5,114 nt of DNA from the IMG/VR virus record IMGVR_UViG_2778261527_000009, positions 1 to 5,114 of that record, one strand, 5' to 3'. The notes beneath the pieces are model-generated. The model was not told the DNA's origin. It did no database searches and saw only the letters and a program-made list of their open reading frames with translations. Shown here piece by piece: positions 1 to 5,114 of this stretch. Each line of letters starts with the position of its first letter. The stretch's first letter is position 1. Made by a program: the position numbers and the translations under genes. The stretch is from a virus (Duplodnaviria > Heunggongvirae > Uroviricota > Caudoviricetes).

Positions 1-450
1 TGCTGCATGCTCCTGCAGCTTCGAAATTGAGAGATACAGCTCGTCGTTAATTGCTGTCTTCTCATGCGGTTCCACCACACCGTCTTCGATTGCCGAACGA
101 ATCTGTCTGGAATAACTGCCAATCTGTTCAATGACTTCCAGCAGGCGCTGGTTAATATCGGCGTTGTCCACATCCTCGACGTCAGGAAGAGACACAAAGA
201 CGCCATTTGCAGACTGCGCCACAGCGTCAGCAATGAAGTGAGTTCCACCAGCACGTTGCAAAATCATTGCCCATCCCAGCGGGAAAATCTGATCGCCATC
301 GGCACGAAGGCGGTTAAATAATGCGTTTTCTGTTACATCCAGCCAGTCAGCTGCTTCAGCGTAACCACCCGGCAACGCTGCGATAGTTTTTCTGACAGCT
401 TTCACGTACCACTCAGGCTGTTTTTCTACTTTCCAGTGATGCTTACCCAC
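1..450 (-). CDS. CII-like / YdaT-like lysogeny regulator, partial (3' end runs off the window start); GTG start
   Basis: Minus-strand frame is open from GTG (plus 448-450) to position 1 with no stop (150 codons, hand-translated: VGKHHWKVEKQPEWYVKAVRKTIAALPGGYAEAADWLDVTENALFNRLRADGDQIFPLGW...ISKLQEHAA). Strong SD AGGAGG (plus 457-462, 6 nt spacer). Sits immediately downstream of the cro-like gene, the position held by cII/ydaT in lambdoid prophages. Not in the ORF track because it lacks an in-window stop. Family assignment is from memory of CII(CP76)/YdaT-like proteins, not a search. Confidence 0.5.
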   Translation of the reverse strand, partial: MGKHHWKVEKQPEWYVKAVRKTIAALPGGYAEAADWLDVTENALFNRLRADGDQIFPLGWAMILQRAGGTHFIADAVAQSANGVFVSLPDVEDVDNADINQRLLEVIEQIGSYSRQIRSAIEDGVVEPHEKTAINDELYLSISKLQEHAA

Positions 451-703
451 GGTTCACCTCCTGTTCCTGTGGTTTAAACCCATTCTGGTTTTGGCTAGAT
501 TGAAAACGTGCCGGATAAAGAATCTGCATTTCGCTGACTTCACCCTTAAAAAAATTGGCTAAACGTTCTGCAAGCTCGATAGATGGAATCTGCTCCAGCC
601 TCTCAATACGACTCAACGTCGCTGGATTGACTTGAACACCCGCAGCAACATGCTGCAAAGTGAAACCATGCGCCTTACGCACATTTCGTAATGGTGATTG
701 CAT
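443..703 (-). CDS. Cro-like HTH (XRE family) transcriptional regulator
   Basis: 86-aa ORF, divergent from the repressor gene. The N-terminal segment GFTLQHVAAGVQVNPATLSRIERLEQIPS has the look of an XRE/Cro-type helix-turn-helix. SD GGAGG is 4 nt upstream of the ATG on the minus strand (plus 706-711). Confidence 0.8.
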   Translation of the reverse strand: MQSPLRNVRKAHGFTLQHVAAGVQVNPATLSRIERLEQIPSIELAERLANFFKGEVSEMQILYPARFQSSQNQNGFKPQEQEVNRG

Positions 704-800: not shown

Positions 801-1493
801 ATGAACATAGGAAACCGAGTCAGACAACTTCGCCAAGCGAAGAACATGAAAATCGCCGATCTCGCTGAAGCAATAGGAGTAGATGCGGCGAACATCTCGC
901 GCTTAGAAACGGGTAAGCAAAAACAATTTACCGAACAAACACTGAGTAATATTGCCAAGAGCTTAGGTGTTGATATTGCTGATCTCTTTACCTCTGCCCA
1001 CAAAAGTAATACTGTATATAAAAACAGTAATGATGAGGATGTTGCGCAGGTGAAGGATGTGTTCCGTATTGAAATGCTGGATATCAGTGCCAGTGCGGGA
1101 AATGGCCTTATCCAGGGCGGTGATGTCATTGATGTGATTCATGCCATCGAATACAGAACTGATAATGCTGTATCAATGTTCGGCGGACGACCAGCCAATC
1201 ACATCAAAGTTATCAACGTTCGTGGGGACAGTATGTGTCCAACCATTGAGCCAGGAGATCTCATCTTCGTTGATGTCAGCATCAATCAGTTTGATGGTGA
1301 TGGTATATATGTCTTTGGTTTTGATGACAAAATATACGTTAAAAGACTTCAAATGATTCCTGACAAACTGCTGGTGATTTCTGATAACCAGATTTACCGT
1401 GAATGGGGAATTACTAGCGAAAACGAACACCGATTCATGGTCTTTGGAAAGGTCTTAATCAGTCAGTCGCAAACCCTTAAGAGACATAATTAA
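801..1493 (+). CDS. CI-like phage repressor (N-terminal HTH_XRE, C-terminal S24 LexA-like autopeptidase domain)
   Basis: 230 aa. N-terminal HTH (KIADLAEAIGVDAANISRLETG). Ala99-Gly100 is a candidate cleavage site. Ser144 in GDSM and Lys181 in VKRL are 37 residues apart, the same Ser-Lys spacing as LexA. No SD precedes the ATG, consistent with a leaderless PRM-type transcript. Confidence 0.9.
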   Translation: MNIGNRVRQLRQAKNMKIADLAEAIGVDAANISRLETGKQKQFTEQTLSNIAKSLGVDIADLFTSAHKSNTVYKNSNDEDVAQVKDVFRIEMLDISASAGNGLIQGGDVIDVIHAIEYRTDNAVSMFGGRPANHIKVINVRGDSMCPTIEPGDLIFVDVSINQFDGDGIYVFGFDDKIYVKRLQMIPDKLLVISDNQIYREWGITSENEHRFMVFGKVLISQSQTLKRHN

Positions 1494-1546: not shown

Positions 1547-1597
1547 TTGCATATCCCGCAAATATCACTTGCATATCTCGCAATTTAATTTTATCTT
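1547..1597 (+). promoter_or_regulatory. OL/PL-like element: two operator-like 15-mers overlapping a putative rightward promoter
   Basis: Direct repeats TTGCATATCCCGCAA (1547-1561) and TTGCATATCTCGCAA (1569-1583), 22 bp centre to centre, matching the 15-mer family seen between cI and cro. Putative -35 TTGCAT (1569-1574), 17-bp spacer, -10 TATCTT (1592-1597). Confidence 0.45.
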
Positions 1598-1744
1598 TTG
1601 TTCCAGACCAACTACAGGATTACAACAAAATCTGGTTGCAACACGGTGCATGTGTCGTAAGCAGTCAGTAAATGTCAAAAACGAACAGGCAGGACGCCCA
1701 CGAAGTAGCCGCCTGGGGCATATGAAGTCCAGGATGATTCGTTA

Positions 1745-1772
1745 GCAACAAAAAAGCGCCCTACAGGACGCT
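1745..1772 (-). terminator. Rho-independent terminator for leftward transcripts
   Basis: On the minus strand: 7-bp stem AGCGTCC/GGGCGCT (one G-U pair), loop TGTA, then TTTTTGTTGC. On the plus strand the same hairpin has a C-A mismatch and no clean U-tract, so it is better formed on the minus strand. Confidence 0.5.
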
Positions 1773-1774
1773 TA

Positions 1775-1786
1775 GCTCTTTAACAA
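1775..1786 (+). promoter_or_regulatory. boxA-like antitermination element (rrn/nut type), immediately after a hairpin
   Basis: GCTCTTTAACAA (1775-1786) is an exact match to the E. coli rrn boxA core (NusB/NusE binding sequence). It lies in the leader between the PL-like promoter and the first downstream gene and is preceded by the hairpin at 1755-1772, the boxB-then-boxA order of rrn leaders. Confidence 0.4.
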
Positions 1787-1831
1787 TCTGGTCCCCATCA
1801 ACAAGTAACTGATAACTTGAGGAGGTGTGAA

Positions 1832-2038
1832 ATGCACAAAACAGAACCCAAAATCGTCGCGCCCGGATACACAAATGAGGAAATTTACGAGTGGATGGCA
1901 AAGAAGCTGGCAGCTATAAACCAGCTTCGTGAAGTGCTGTCTTATCGACAGGAAATAATAGACTCCTTAAAAAAACTGGATCAGGAAATCACGGTTTTAT
2001 CACAGGATGTTACTTTAGATATTGTGCAGACAAATTAG
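1832..2038 (+). CDS. Hypothetical small protein (68 aa), moron-like
   Basis: ATG at 1832 preceded by a strong SD GAGGAGG (1819-1825, 6-nt spacer). The track's TTG at 1817 is unlikely to be the real start. AT-rich relative to flanks. Product MHKTEPKIVAPGYTNEEIYEWMAKK...; no family recognised. Confidence 0.55.
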   Translation: MHKTEPKIVAPGYTNEEIYEWMAKKLAAINQLREVLSYRQEIIDSLKKLDQEITVLSQDVTLDIVQTN

Positions 2039-2444
2039 GATCCCATTCATTTTCGTCAAAATCATCAAAGTGATGAATTTGTGATCTCCAGTCTCGATAA
2101 TCTAAAAATTTCTGGGCGGTTACGCTTATTTTATCAAGTGTGAGTTCATCCTGAATTGAAAGAAGAAGTTCATCAAATTTCATCTCATTAATCTGTTTTG
2201 GCATCCAGTGATGCTTCATCAGAATAAGGTGAACCAGAGCCTTTTTCCCATTCAACTGATTATAGGGAGTGCCGAATTTCTTCCGGTGCTCATGTAAGAC
2301 AAGGTCCAGAAGAGTAAGTAATGTTGCCCTTGATTCGACTTTGCTTATTTCGACTGATGACACTACCCCACTGATTTCAATGCCCCGATACTTTCCAACA
2401 TTTTCACAGTGGGATTTGTACAGCGTGTAGATATTACCGGACAT
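2010..2444 (-). CDS. Hypothetical protein (144 aa), convergent with and overlapping the 68-aa gene; candidate moron/exclusion gene
   Basis: 144-aa ORF with a mixed, protein-like composition. Weak SD (AAGGAAA) about 6 nt upstream of the ATG on the minus strand. AT-rich. Overlaps the 3' end of the 68-aa gene by 29 nt. No family recognised from memory. Confidence 0.6.
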   Translation of the reverse strand: MSGNIYTLYKSHCENVGKYRGIEISGVVSSVEISKVESRATLLTLLDLVLHEHRKKFGTPYNQLNGKKALVHLILMKHHWMPKQINEMKFDELLLSIQDELTLDKISVTAQKFLDYRDWRSQIHHFDDFDENEWDPNLSAQYLK

Positions 2445-2459
2445 TTCTTTTCCTTTTGC

Positions 2460-2511
2460 GTTGTTGGGGATAACCAGATTAACCGAATCCTTGTTGTTGG
2501 GGAATAACCAG
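2460..2511. repeat. Two near-identical direct repeats (18/19 bp) upstream of the 144-aa gene
   Basis: GTTGTTGGGGATAACCAG (2460-2477) and GTTGTTGGGGAATAACCAG (2493-2511), identical apart from one inserted A, 33 bp apart. They lie 16-67 nt upstream of the minus-strand ATG at 2444. Confidence 0.6.
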
Positions 2512-2805
2512 GTCCACCTCGCCTGATGTGGCTAAAAGCAGGCACATAACAGCTAAGTATTTTCAACCAGAGAGAATCCTTAGCGTTGTGGTGAATGCGG
2601 CTCAGCGCACGCGGGTTAAGGTTGAGGCTGACAGTCGACCTTCTGTGGATACCCACCCGCCTGGTGTGCAACCTTCGCCAGGCACCGGGAGGCACCCGGC
2701 ACCACAACTTTATGCTGTGTGTAGTCCTGGCGGTACCAGTTTGTACCCTTGCTTCCGGCTGGCATCCCCGCACCACTGAAACGACTTCTTCCTGACTATA
2801 AACGG

Positions 2806-3066
2806 ATGGAAGAAAAAATAGACGCCGTAATCCGTGAGAAATACGGGTTACCTCCTGTTATGAGCACGCCAGTGAAATATGCCGATCTCATTATGCTGGC
2901 AACCGAACGCCGCGATCTCGGGCTTGATGATGGCTCTTTCTGGCCTGTGCTGGAAGGTATCCCGGCAACAGAGATGTTCAACGTGATTCCACTGGCTCCA
3001 GGCCATGCCTACGGGATGTTTATGGAACGCTTTAACGAATTATCGGAGTTACGCAAATGCGCATGA
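2806..3066 (+). CDS. HD-domain phosphohydrolase C-terminal remnant (YfdR/YfbR-like), N-terminally truncated; possibly a pseudogene
   Basis: The frame is open from 2725 (stop at 2722-2724) to the stop at 3064-3066. The product contains TPVKY and ADLIMLATERRDL, resembling the C-terminal half of YfbR/YfdR-type 5'-deoxynucleotidases, but no H...HD metal-binding motif is encoded upstream in any frame. First in-frame ATG is 2806 (weak SD); the track's TTG at 2749 is an alternative. Confidence 0.45.
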   Translation: MEEKIDAVIREKYGLPPVMSTPVKYADLIMLATERRDLGLDDGSFWPVLEGIPATEMFNVIPLAPGHAYGMFMERFNELSELRKCA

Positions 3067-3419
3067 ATGTTTTCGAAATGGAAGGGTTTCTTCGTGGGAG
3101 ATGTGTACCGCGAGATCTGAAAGTGAATGAAACGGATGCTGAATACCTAGTGCGTAAATTCGATGCGCTTGAAGCTAAATGTGCAGCACAGGAAAACAAA
3201 GTAATACCAGTGTCAACTGAACTGCCACCAGCAAATGAAAGTGTTTTGTTATTCGATGCTAACGGAGAAGGCTGGCTAATTGGCTGGCGTTCTCTCTGGT
3301 ACACCTGGGGACAAAAAGAAACCGGAGAATGGCAGTGGACATTTCAGGTCGGGGACCTTGAAAACGTCAATATCACTCACTGGGCAGTAATGCCAAAAGC
3401 ACCGGAGGCTGGAGCATAA
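3057..3419 (+). CDS. DUF551-like phage early protein (120 aa; resembles the CPS-53 YfdS class)
   Basis: 120-aa ORF, SD GGAG (3044-3047). Start overlaps the upstream stop (ATG 3057, upstream TGA 3064-3066). Trp-rich C-terminus (WLIGWRSLWYTWGQKETGEWQW) typical of DUF551 proteins in lambdoid early regions. Resemblance is from memory, not a search. Confidence 0.7.
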   Translation: MRMNVFEMEGFLRGRCVPRDLKVNETDAEYLVRKFDALEAKCAAQENKVIPVSTELPPANESVLLFDANGEGWLIGWRSLWYTWGQKETGEWQWTFQVGDLENVNITHWAVMPKAPEAGA

Positions 3420-3724
3420 TGACCACTTTTACCGACAAAGAACTGATTAAAGAAATTAAAGAGCGTATCAGCAGCCTTGACGTGCGAGACGATATTGAGC
3501 GCCGTGCTTATGAAATCGCACTCCTATCTCTGGAAGTAGAACCAGATGAACGCGAAGCTTATGAATTATTCATGGAAAAGCGTTTTGGTGACTTAGTAGA
3601 TCGTCGGAGAGCAAAAAACGGCGATAACGAATACATGGCATGGAATATGACTCTCGGTTGGATCGTCTGGCAGCAACGAGCTGGTATCCATTTCTCAACA
3701 ATCTCACAGCAAGAGGTGAAATAA
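3419..3724 (+). CDS. Hypothetical phage early protein (101 aa; resembles the CPS-53 YfdT class)
   Basis: 101-aa ORF with TAATG stop/start overlap with the upstream gene at 3417-3421. SD GGAG at 3411-3414. Confidence 0.65.
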   Translation: MTTFTDKELIKEIKERISSLDVRDDIERRAYEIALLSLEVEPDEREAYELFMEKRFGDLVDRRRAKNGDNEYMAWNMTLGWIVWQQRAGIHFSTISQQEVK

Positions 3725-4074
3725 TGGAGCCATACAGCCTCACACTCGATGAGGCCTGTCATTTTCTCAAGATATCCAGACCGACTGCCATTAACTGGAT
3801 ACGCACAGGGCGTCTTCAGGCAACACGCAAAGATCCCACTAAGAATAAATCTCCTTACCTCACAACACGACAAGCCTGCATTGCGGCTCTTCAGTCTCCG
3901 CTGCATACTGTCCAGGTGAGCGCGGGTGATGGCATAACAGAGGAAAGAAAATGTCACTCTTCCGCAGAGGTGAAATATGGTACGCCAGTTTCACATTGCC
4001 GAACGGTAAAAGATTTAAACAGTCTCTTGGAACAAAGGACAAAAGGCAGGCGACAGAACTCCATGACAAGCTAA
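3724..4074 (+). CDS. xis: Excisionase (Xis), HTH DNA-binding, P22-type
   Basis: 116 aa starting [31 protein letters not shown], an excisionase-type HTH. TAATG overlap with the upstream gene at 3722-3726. Lies directly upstream of int and overlaps it. Length matches P22 Xis as I recall it. The track's longer ORF from 3640 is an in-frame upstream extension. Confidence 0.8.
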
Positions 4075-5114
4075 AGGCTGAAGCATGGCGGGTCAGCAAA
4101 CTTGGTGAAATACCTGATATAACGTTCGAGGAAGCGTGTGTCAGGTGGCTTGAAGAGAAAGCACATAAAAAATCACTGGACGATGACAAAAGCCGGATCG
4201 GATTCTGGCTTCAACATTTCGCAGGAATGCAACTAAGAGACATTACTGAATCAAAAATTTATTCAGCAATGCAGAAAATGACGAACCGGCGTCATGAGGA
4301 AAACTGGAAACTCAGGGCAGAAGCATGCAGAAAAAAAGGGAAACCTGTTCCAGAATACACGCCAAAACCAGCGTCCGTTGCAACGAAGGCTACGCATCTT
4401 TCATTTATAAAGGCCCTACTAAGAGCCGCAGAGCGTGAATGGAAAATGCTGGATAAGGCACCAATTATTAAAGTGCCTCAACCAAAGAATAAACGGATCC
4501 GCTGGCTGGAGCCCCATGAAGCACAAAGGCTGATTGATGAATGTCCGGAGCCATTAAAGTCTGTTGTTGAATTTGCACTGGCAACAGGCTTAAGACGCTC
4601 GAACATCATCAACCTTGAATGGCAACAAATAGATATGCAGCGCCGGGTGGCATGGATAAACCCGGAAGAGAGTAAATCAAACCGCGCAATTGGCGTTGCG
4701 CTGAATGATACTGCATGTCGCGTATTGAAAAAACAAATCGGGAATCATCACCGTTGGGTATTTGTGTACAAGGAAAGCTGTACCAAACCAGACGGAACGA
4801 AAGCGCCAACAGTAAGGAAGATGCGGTATGACGCAAACACAGCCTGGAAAGCGGCGCTGAGACGGGCTGGTATTGATGATTTCAGATTTCACGACTTGAG
4901 ACACACCTGGGCAAGTTGGCTGGTTCAAGCCGGAGTCCCGTTGTCAGTGTTACAGGAAATGGGAGGCTGGGAGTCTATCGAAATGGTTCGTCGATATGCT
5001 CACCTTGCACCTAATCACCTTACCGAACACGCACGGCAAATAGACTCGATCCTGAACCCATCGGTCCCAAATTTGTCCCAGTTAAAAAATAAGGAAGGTA
5101 CAAATGATGTGTAA
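3951..5114 (+). CDS. int: Tyrosine site-specific integrase, P22 Int-like
   Basis: 387 aa with SD AGGA (3941-3944). C-terminal catalytic signature [11 protein letters not shown] ... VRRYAHL (box II His/Arg and the Tyr nucleophile). The N-terminus [46 protein letters not shown] closely matches phage P22 Int as remembered. Confidence 0.95.

Follow-up and report, generated by a model that had tools for sequence, protein, structure and literature searches.

A divergent STnc100/PasD-type RNA module and a separate deletion junction in the early-left arm of a defective lambdoid prophage

Between an AT-rich moron and the early genes of a defective prophage lies a short GC-rich segment, which a preliminary description of the DNA took for either a structured non-coding RNA or a recombination scar. 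Which of the two is it, and what might it do? In the stretch of 5,114 nucleotides analysed here (the window), both readings are true, each of a different part of the segment. Comparison with homologous loci shows the segment to belong to the prophage STnc100/EcOnc27/PasD RNA family, of which it is a divergent and intact representative encoded on the plus strand, and shows the junction at 2762/2763 to be an illegitimate 1.76 kb deletion that is unrelated to the RNA and truncates yfdR. Membership in a known family is the point missing from the preliminary description. The family itself has been described already; what is new is a sub-threshold variant that annotation misses or calls protein and, for the window, the distinction between an intact RNA module and an unrelated deletion scar.

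Prophage setting and right edge of the segment

The window holds the immunity region and the early-left arm of a defective e14/SfV-like lambdoid prophage. Its landmarks are as follows.

443-703, minus strand: cro-like gene
739 and 773: OR operator repeats TCNCGCAAW
801-1493, plus strand: LexA-type repressor gene, with its own terminator at 1512-1529 (cI terminator)
1548-1786, plus strand: early-left context (OL/PL operators, hairpin, boxA)
1554 and 1576: OL/PL operator repeats TCNCGCAAW
1754-1773: hairpin directly before boxA
1775-1786: exact rrn-type boxA GCTCTTTAACAA (0.05 expected by chance)
2010-2444, reverse-oriented: AT-rich moron of the ECs1072 family
2514-2762, plus strand: conserved non-coding module
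2762/2763: deletion junction, at which the window lacks 1,763 bp present in SfIV and 459 bp present in E. coli 1506
2763-3066, plus strand: 3' remnant of yfdR (HD-domain 5'-deoxynucleotidase), lacking ~77 N-terminal codons
Downstream of the GC-rich segment: the yfdR remnant, three small early genes and a P22/SfV-type integrase gene

The operator repeat TCNCGCAAW occurs four times in the window, against 0.52 occurrences expected by chance, and is confined to OR and OL. From this layout of genes and operators, PL transcription therefore runs rightwards through the GC-rich segment. The boxA lies ~190 nt 3' of the OL/PL operators and just ahead of a 68-aa ORF that corresponds to phrog_1744, of unknown function. 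The order of hairpin and then boxA at 1754-1786 is closer to that of rrn antiterminators than to lambda nut sites, and on the minus strand this hairpin is scored as a terminator for the moron as well. Upstream of the start codon of the moron are two direct repeats, GTTGTTGGGGA(A)TAACCAG, at 2455-2518, which are similar to the RNA element at its 5' edge as well (GAATCCTT..GTTGTGG); they may represent operator-like sites, or else partial duplications. No relevant neighbouring small RNA was found in the literature on ECs1072/Z1335.

The prophage is mosaic. Its immunity region (cro, repressor and operators; 479-1676) is unrelated to the counterparts in SfIV, E. coli 1506 and e14, and the flanks on either side are 94-99% identical to the same three, a classic mosaic immunity swap. 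Besides the junction at 2762/2763, a second mosaic boundary is found near 2513/2514, where the matches to SfV and SfII start. The GC-rich segment had been drawn at 2520-2765, and a GC peak at 2600-2750 bears this out, with values in 100-nt intervals of 0.66 (2601-2700) and 0.61 (2651-2750) versus 0.32-0.45 across the moron (2000-2450); the left third (2520-2600) reaches only 0.48-0.51.

The right edge is where the proposed scar was found. In the alignment, window 1677-2762 corresponds to 4227-5313 of the SfIV locus and window 2763-5114 to 7077-9428, so that homology to intact relatives stops exactly at 2762/2763, the truncation point of the HD-domain gene as the preliminary description had noticed. 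The identity of the gene as yfdR follows from the RefSeq annotation of the homologous locus, PHROG matches and the alignment. Missing relative to SfIV are the rest of the leader, a gp34-type gene, a DUF2303 gene and ~77 codons of yfdR. Microhomology at the junction is 2 nt at most, and a search for the 40-nt junction sequence found it in none of 5,426 complete E. coli genomes and in none of the 246 fetched loci. E. coli 1506 carries a different deletion of 1,306 bp in the same region, and e14 has lost everything up to xis. The scar is limited to this edge: the RNA core is a separate entity that ends 54 nt before it and, because of this distance from its closing helix P1, was left untouched by the deletion. 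Origin from a host or IS fragment was ruled out, every DNA match being to lambdoid or P1-like phages or prophages.

Family, fold and covariation of the RNA module

The module at 2514-2762 is common to SfV, SfII, SfIV, Kati, PhiR49_1, mEp460_4F5 and the e14 prophage of K-12; on the right the phage matches reach as far as 2762, and on the left they start at 2514 for SfV and SfII and further upstream for SfIV. Window 2555-2762 is 100% identical to the inducible phage PhiR49_1, and 2520-2727 is present at ≥ 90% identity in 1,878 of 5,426 complete E. coli genomes (35%). In SfIV, ST64B, phiES15, 118970_sal3 and e14 the module keeps its place and orientation, with the repressor gene on one side and the first early-left gene on the other, and in the P1-like phage RCS47 a lipoprotein gene follows the copy downstream. 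Aligned phage copies consist of two conserved blocks, UUGUGGUGAAUGCGGCUMAGCGCACGCGGG and CACCGGGAGGCACCCGGCACCACAA, with a variable middle between them.

A covariance-model scan, as the preliminary description had proposed, gave a single Rfam match in the window, to STnc100 (RF02076), at 2563-2748 on the plus strand. It spans the full model (positions 1-206) with 35.6 bits and an E-value of 3.5e-5, below the gathering threshold of 47 bits; the copies in SfIV, ST64B, phiES15, RCS47 and 118970_sal3 likewise stay under the threshold, at 35-41 bits. The features of the STnc100 family are nonetheless present in the window: a helix P1 on GGUG...CACC with covarying extension pairs, GAAU and next to it hairpin H1, the loop of which is conserved (C-U-N-N-G-C-G across the inner pair; GAAU GCG-GCUCAGCGC-A-CGC in the window), and hairpin X with the near-invariant hairpin T after it, inside CACCGGGAGGCACCCGGCACC. 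A tRNA or tRNA-like element was rejected, as ARAGORN found none in the window and Rfam returned no tRNA match there.

A closing helix of 9 bp, four helices inside it and a pseudoknot make up the fold. Its parts, all on the plus strand, are listed with the flanking hairpins.

2521-2543: 5' flanking hairpin A, GCCUG / CAGGC, with a 13-nt loop (read from the sequence)
2552-2584: 5' flanking hairpin P0, a 13-bp imperfect stem abutting P1 (inverted repeat I1, 85% complementary)
2585-2708: STnc100/PasD-type core, closed by P1
2585-2593 with 2700-2708: helix P1, GUUGUGGUG with CACCACAAC (inverted repeat I2, 9/9 pairs)
2594-2612: junction AAU, then hairpin H1, GCG-GC[UCAGC]GC-A-CGC
2613-2658: helix P3, GGGU (2613-2616) with ACCC (2655-2658), enclosing the variable region
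2618-2624 with 2669-2675: pseudoknot P2, AAGGUUG with CAACCUU in the loop of hairpin X, 7 bp
2659-2683: hairpin X, GCCUGG / CCAGGC
2683-2703: near-invariant 21-mer CACCGGGAGGCACCCGGCACC, with hairpin T inside
2685-2699: hairpin T, CCGGG-AGGCA-CCCGG
2709-2762: 3' tail, with a weak hairpin at 2727-2739 and then UUUGU

Folding of the whole segment gave z = -2.17 for the plus and -1.04 for the minus strand. The core at 2585-2708 reached z = -3.09, none of 200 shuffles was as stable, and its minimum free energy fold equals the centroid; folded alone, the window core forms P1, H1, X and T. The last two are the inverted repeats that the preliminary description had picked out. Both exist, 1 nt to the left of where they had been placed, as GCCTGG (2659-2664) with CCAGGC (2678-2683) and CCGGG (2685-2689) with CCCGG (2695-2699), and the composite pattern of both occurs once in the window and in none of 200 shuffles. 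The register of P3 in the window was taken from a further inverted repeat, I3.

Relatives were gathered by scanning two public collections with the exact 21-mer, which gave at least 120 loci in each. They span the Enterobacterales (Escherichia, Salmonella, Citrobacter, Enterobacter, Kosakonia, Pantoea, Erwinia, Rahnella and others), and copies of the family often occur at 2-3 per kilobase. GGTGAAT was found 35-115 nt 5' of the 21-mer in 240 of 269 instances. GGUG and the junction AAU together form the anchor GGUGAAU, which was used to define the set of relatives. Because the relatives were seeded with the exact 21-mer, the invariance of hairpin T is partly built in, a bias relieved only in part by the copies located from the opposite end through the GGUGAAU/H1 anchor, of which 235 of 276 carry the exact 21-mer.

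Covariation supports the structure of 2585-2708, and the suggestion of a structured non-coding RNA holds in this stretch. From 89 non-redundant relatives (phages and genomes of Enterobacterales), RNAalifold predicted P1, H1, P3, X and T. Across these sequences 94.3% of the paired cells are maintained, versus 80.1% in shuffles and 39-45% with slid partners; compensatory double-change cells number 321 versus 95 in shuffles, and the covariation score of 0.398 (versus 0.131) was reached by none of 500 shuffles. The alignment of homologues thus reveals the compensatory substitutions whose absence would have spoken against an RNA. Discrete transcripts, the lack of which would have told against it too, are seen for homologues on Northern blots (PMC5331693, PMC8550237). 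G-U pairs are frequent across the relatives, which places the RNA on the plus strand.

The individual helices carry this signal as follows. The two P1 extension pairs are paired in 97% and 95% of 187 distinct cores (UA 133/CG 33/UG 13/AU 3 and GC 117/AU 45/GU 13). H1 has the canonical form CCC-CC[UAUGC]GG-A-GGG, of which every varying pair is compensated in the window; double changes at column pairs 16/33, 18/31 and 21/29 number 15, 16 and 21 among the 89 sequences. RNAalifold has P3 at columns 34-36/102-104, where the third pair shows 37 double changes, and hairpin X has double changes at all six pairs, in 9 to 37 of the 89 sequences. The pseudoknot was derived here and is present in the window, the consensus line that cmscan gives for RF02076 holding nested pairs only. 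In a partner-swap test the true P2 partners form a mean duplex of 5.95 nt, versus 4.25 ± 0.10 for swapped partners (maximum 4.48 in 200 permutations), and the pairing is kept with other bases in phiES15 (AAGGCUG/CAGCCUU), RCS47 (UGGUUAU/AUAACCA) and the locus L017 (CUGGUG/CACCGG).

In the 5' flank, hairpin A is kept in phiES15, e14 and a Lelliottia locus (L136), with no covariation seen within it, and longer hairpins equivalent to P0 are present in RCS47 and the loci L023 and L122. The pyrimidine-rich motif upstream of P1 is UGCUCUU-like in relatives and AAUCCUUAGC in the window; a boxA/nut reading of it was rejected, since it is the 3' strand of P0. Bases 2728-2762 are also found in other phages within the next module, as separate 35-nt matches. 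Intact relatives have a second conserved structured module 3' of the element (SfIV, L002 ~5314-5450; K-12-type e14, L247 ~3730-3860), a long hairpin CAGAGAAGAGCA...UGCUCUUCUCUG enclosing GGGCUCAUAACCC, which is deleted in the window. GGGCUCAUAACCC resembles the initiator-tRNA anticodon arm, and in RCS47 and L023 the element is flanked on its 5' side by a hairpin similar to this second module.

Coding potential and the ymfH annotation

The segment is poor in ORFs, as first described, with just overlapping frames of 49-137 aa on both strands and no Pfam match for any of them. A protein-coding reading would nevertheless invoke a YmfH-like ORF (2595-2795, plus strand), a phrog_3651-like ORF (2616-2765, minus strand) or a frameshifted fragment of either. 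In many genomes the RefSeq annotation of the homologous stretch reads 'hypothetical protein' or 'YmfH', and phrog_3651 (unknown function, 162 positions) matches the minus-strand ORF with an E-value of 3e-27. Conservation of a reading frame is, however, absent among the relatives: on neither strand does a frame across the core stay open in more than 37% of the 89 sequences, the spacing between the two invariant motifs is distributed evenly over the three residues modulo 3 (34/28/27) rather than a multiple of three, and the ends of the ORFs over the module differ between SfIV and ST64B. The substitutions follow instead the pattern of a base-paired RNA. The phrog_3651 match is attributed to ORFs annotated over conserved non-coding DNA in close relatives, and it looks as if phrog_3651 itself had been built from spurious ORFs on a non-coding region. 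On the sequences compared, the protein-coding reading is already contradicted, including that of a frameshifted protein gene, and we regard it as very improbable.

The K-12 gene ymfH is annotated on top of a copy of the RNA module: L247 3501-3880 corresponds to window 2514-2742 and is 95.7% identical over 230 aligned nucleotides. A 1-nt indel between K-12 and the window shifts the supposed YmfH frame, and ymfH is therefore probably not a protein gene. The e14 copy also has two changes in the near-invariant hairpin, GGGAGG to GGGGG and CCCGG to CCCGA. Over-expression of ymfH has been listed as triggering a retron toxin (preprint, 10.1101/2020.06.22.160242), and the gene belongs to the YmfT iModulon alongside other e14 genes (PMC12133099). 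Phenotypes assigned to ymfH, such as the triggering of a retron toxin on over-expression, are open to a reading in terms of RNA. The variant is present in about one-third of complete E. coli genomes, yet it stays under the Rfam threshold and is called protein (ymfH in K-12); its recognition as RNA would remove a spurious protein family.

Transcription, proposed function and known counterparts

The family has two forms. A heuristic of our own, applied to 166 copies, assigns a strong intrinsic terminator to 75 of them, beginning ~28-39 nt after the motif. Among the terminator-bearing copies, 47% have a -10-like hexamer at -14/-13 and a -35-like hexamer is enriched at -38, positions that imply a transcription start at the edge of P1. 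These canonical copies have no orientation bias relative to the next gene (37 on the same strand, 32 on the opposite one) and typically lie in the Q-to-lysis zone by holin, outer-membrane-protein, esterase or tRNA genes. Judged from such features, they behave as autonomous small-RNA genes.

The window-like form, with an H1 of the type GCG-GC...GC-A-CGC, accounts for 20 of 184 distinct cores, and 19 of the 22 classified copies of this form lack a terminator. The nearest downstream ORF of these 19 is on the same strand in 15 and on the opposite one in 4, and all 19 have an SD-preceded ORF within 400 nt. The window copy has neither mark of a discrete gene, a promoter at the P1 edge or a terminator ~30-40 nt after P1: no sigma-70 promoter-like or intrinsic terminator-like site was found flanking it, and a sigma-70 promoter of its own was rejected, there being none where canonical copies carry one. 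It lies ~1 kb 3' of OL/PL in the early-left orientation and would therefore be made within the PL transcript. A riboswitch-like terminator/antiterminator switch was rejected as well; the terminators that follow family members, 28-39 nt from P1, are unrelated in sequence, which implies that there is no conserved alternative pairing.

Other copies adjoin tRNA genes (loci L198 3746-4900; L207; L167; L106). Some end 8-11 nt upstream of phage tRNA-Met genes and others start 14-49 nt after a tRNA-Arg gene, and RNase P or tRNA processing could therefore set the ends of such copies in place of a terminator.

The stretch 2585-2708, with flanking hairpins that extend it to 2521-2762, encodes a compact structured RNA on the plus strand. 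Judged from its context, the leader-type variant would be transcribed as part of the PL transcript upon derepression of the prophage. By analogy with its relatives, the domain, once transcribed and possibly processed, may act as an Hfq-associated regulatory RNA, for which the invariant T hairpin and junction nucleotides could form the surface that a conserved host factor recognizes. The 1.76 kb deletion removed two early genes together with the remaining leader sequence and the 5' portion of yfdR, and in this decaying e14/SfV-like prophage it left the RNA fused to what remains of that gene. Production from the PL transcript and Hfq-associated action like that of the relatives is the most likely course of events by this analogy, and the joint reading of an STnc100-family RNA from the PL transcript, an Hfq-associated regulator and a separate deletion at the right edge is one that we hold to be probable, with some reserve. 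The poly-U of a terminator usually anchors Hfq on small RNAs; the window copy is without one, which counts against Hfq-type action. Activity of the window copy is also not guaranteed, since the prophage is visibly decaying and the e14 copy has already changed twice in the invariant hairpin.

The main rival, which we think unlikely, is a role in cis: the element would act within the early-left leader on the transcription complex or the downstream mRNA and not as a small RNA in trans. It could be a processive antiterminator or anti-Rho element (cf. HK022 putL), a stabilizer of the mRNA 5' end or a platform for translation. Its position speaks for such a role, always between PL and the first early-left gene and co-oriented with them in five lambdoid phages without an annotated N protein, as do the bias of window-like copies towards a same-strand ORF (15 versus 4) and the SD-preceded ORF within 400 nt in 19 of 19. 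In phiES15, a strong terminator at the position equivalent to the 3' tail of the window stands between the element and kil-gam, so that early-left expression in this phage needs RNA polymerase to read through. The fold is self-contained, and its invariant nucleotides would suit recognition by RNA polymerase or the ribosome (the T hairpin has GGGAGG). Against a cis role, the element appears unlike put RNA as described (two stem-loops, ~70 nt; PMC9378689) in sequence and architecture. Canonical terminator copies are unbiased in orientation (37 same, 32 opposite) and accumulate as discrete RNAs of ~200 nt (PMC5331693, PMC8550237), which implies efficient termination after them. Moreover, the upstream rrn-type boxA already offers a route to antitermination, and the unrelated terminator sequences leave no room for a conserved antiterminator/terminator switch.

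The module might also be a functionless relic, intact in sequence and inert, stranded in a defective prophage whose early-left operon was deleted and persisting because there has been too little time for decay. This part of the prophage has suffered several deletions (the window lacks 1,763 bp, E. coli 1506 lacks 1,306 bp and e14 still more), the e14 copy has its two mutations in an otherwise invariant hairpin, and the window junction is unique with respect to the 5,426 genomes. The identity of 2555-2762 to an inducible phage, the intact state of all helices and invariant motifs, and a deletion that stops 54 nt past the core and leaves the upstream PL and operators in place weigh against a relic, to which we assign a slightly lower probability than to a role in cis.

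The preferred reading of an Hfq-associated regulator may not exhaust the function of the domain. Five helices, a pseudoknot and invariant junctions are not what one typically finds in a small RNA that acts by base pairing, and the published role of the family may therefore be incomplete. One conjecture, to which we give a low probability, is that the core is a self-contained, pseudoknotted multi-helix RNA rather than a mere base-pairing small RNA, and that its near-invariant hairpin (CCGGG-AGGCA-CCCGG, with GGGAGG inside) and its junction nucleotides dock on a conserved host machine such as RNA polymerase, the ribosome or an RNase. Were this true, the leader-type variant, which heads the early-left operon in N-less e14/SfV/ST64B-type phages, would represent a new class of RNA that phages use in cis, possibly an antiterminator, a processing signal or a ribozyme-like element, and the small RNAs with terminators would have put this domain to a derived or parallel use. 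The pseudoknotted fold, the hairpin that is near-invariant across genera and the three modes of 3'-end formation in the family (terminator, tRNA processing and read-on into the operon) point to a conserved host factor. The STnc100/PasD-type family is among the most abundant annotated small RNAs of enterobacteria.

Several known systems resemble the module in one respect or another. The C4/CI antisense RNAs of P1, P7 and P4 and IsrK are also regulatory RNAs derived from phage leaders; they belong to other Rfam families, with no match in the window. The right arm of ST64B and that of 118970_sal3 carry C4 antisense RNA with isrK next to it (L003 1409-1597; L006 936-1124); both score above the Rfam threshold there, and neither has a counterpart in the window. 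HK022 putL/putR are alike in position, as structured leader RNAs in an early operon of an N-less lambdoid phage, ahead of terminators, but the analogy is functional only: compared by description, put consists of two stem-loops of ~70 nt (PMC9378689), whereas the window element has five helices and a pseudoknot in 124 nt.

PasD1 and PasD2 of enteropathogenic E. coli are prophage-encoded, Hfq-dependent RNAs, seen on Northern blots and with many RIL-seq partners (PMC8550237). They lie near Q antiterminator, lpxR and esterase genes, in contrast to the PL leader of the window, and are likened to it here by description. STnc100 (RF02076), which includes EcOnc27/sRNA103 located 3' of stx2B in E. coli O157:H7, is likewise prophage-borne. 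In EDL933, 11 STnc100 copies are expressed and STnc100_4 was confirmed by Northern blot (PMC5331693), and EcOnc27/sRNA103 downstream of stx2B overlaps STnc100 and is bound by Hfq (PMC12711010). A mechanism is established in none of the published reports on STnc100, EcOnc27 and PasD1/2 (PMC5331693, PMC12711010, PMC8550237, 10.64898/2026.05.13.724894). The window differs from STnc100 in its H1 stem (GCG-GC/GC-CGC, not CCC-CC/GG-GGG, every change being compensated), in its score of 35.6 bits against a threshold of 47, in having neither promoter nor intrinsic terminator of its own, and in its site in the PL leader instead of the Q-to-lysis moron zone by stx, tRNA, holin and esterase genes. The architecture is nevertheless the same along the full-model alignment, from the GGUG/CACC of P1 through the GAAU junction, the conserved loop of H1 and hairpin X to CACCGGGAGGCACCCGGCACC, and PasD and STnc100 themselves have been traced to a common ancestor and a common consensus structure (2026 preprint, bioRxiv 10.64898/2026.05.13.724894).
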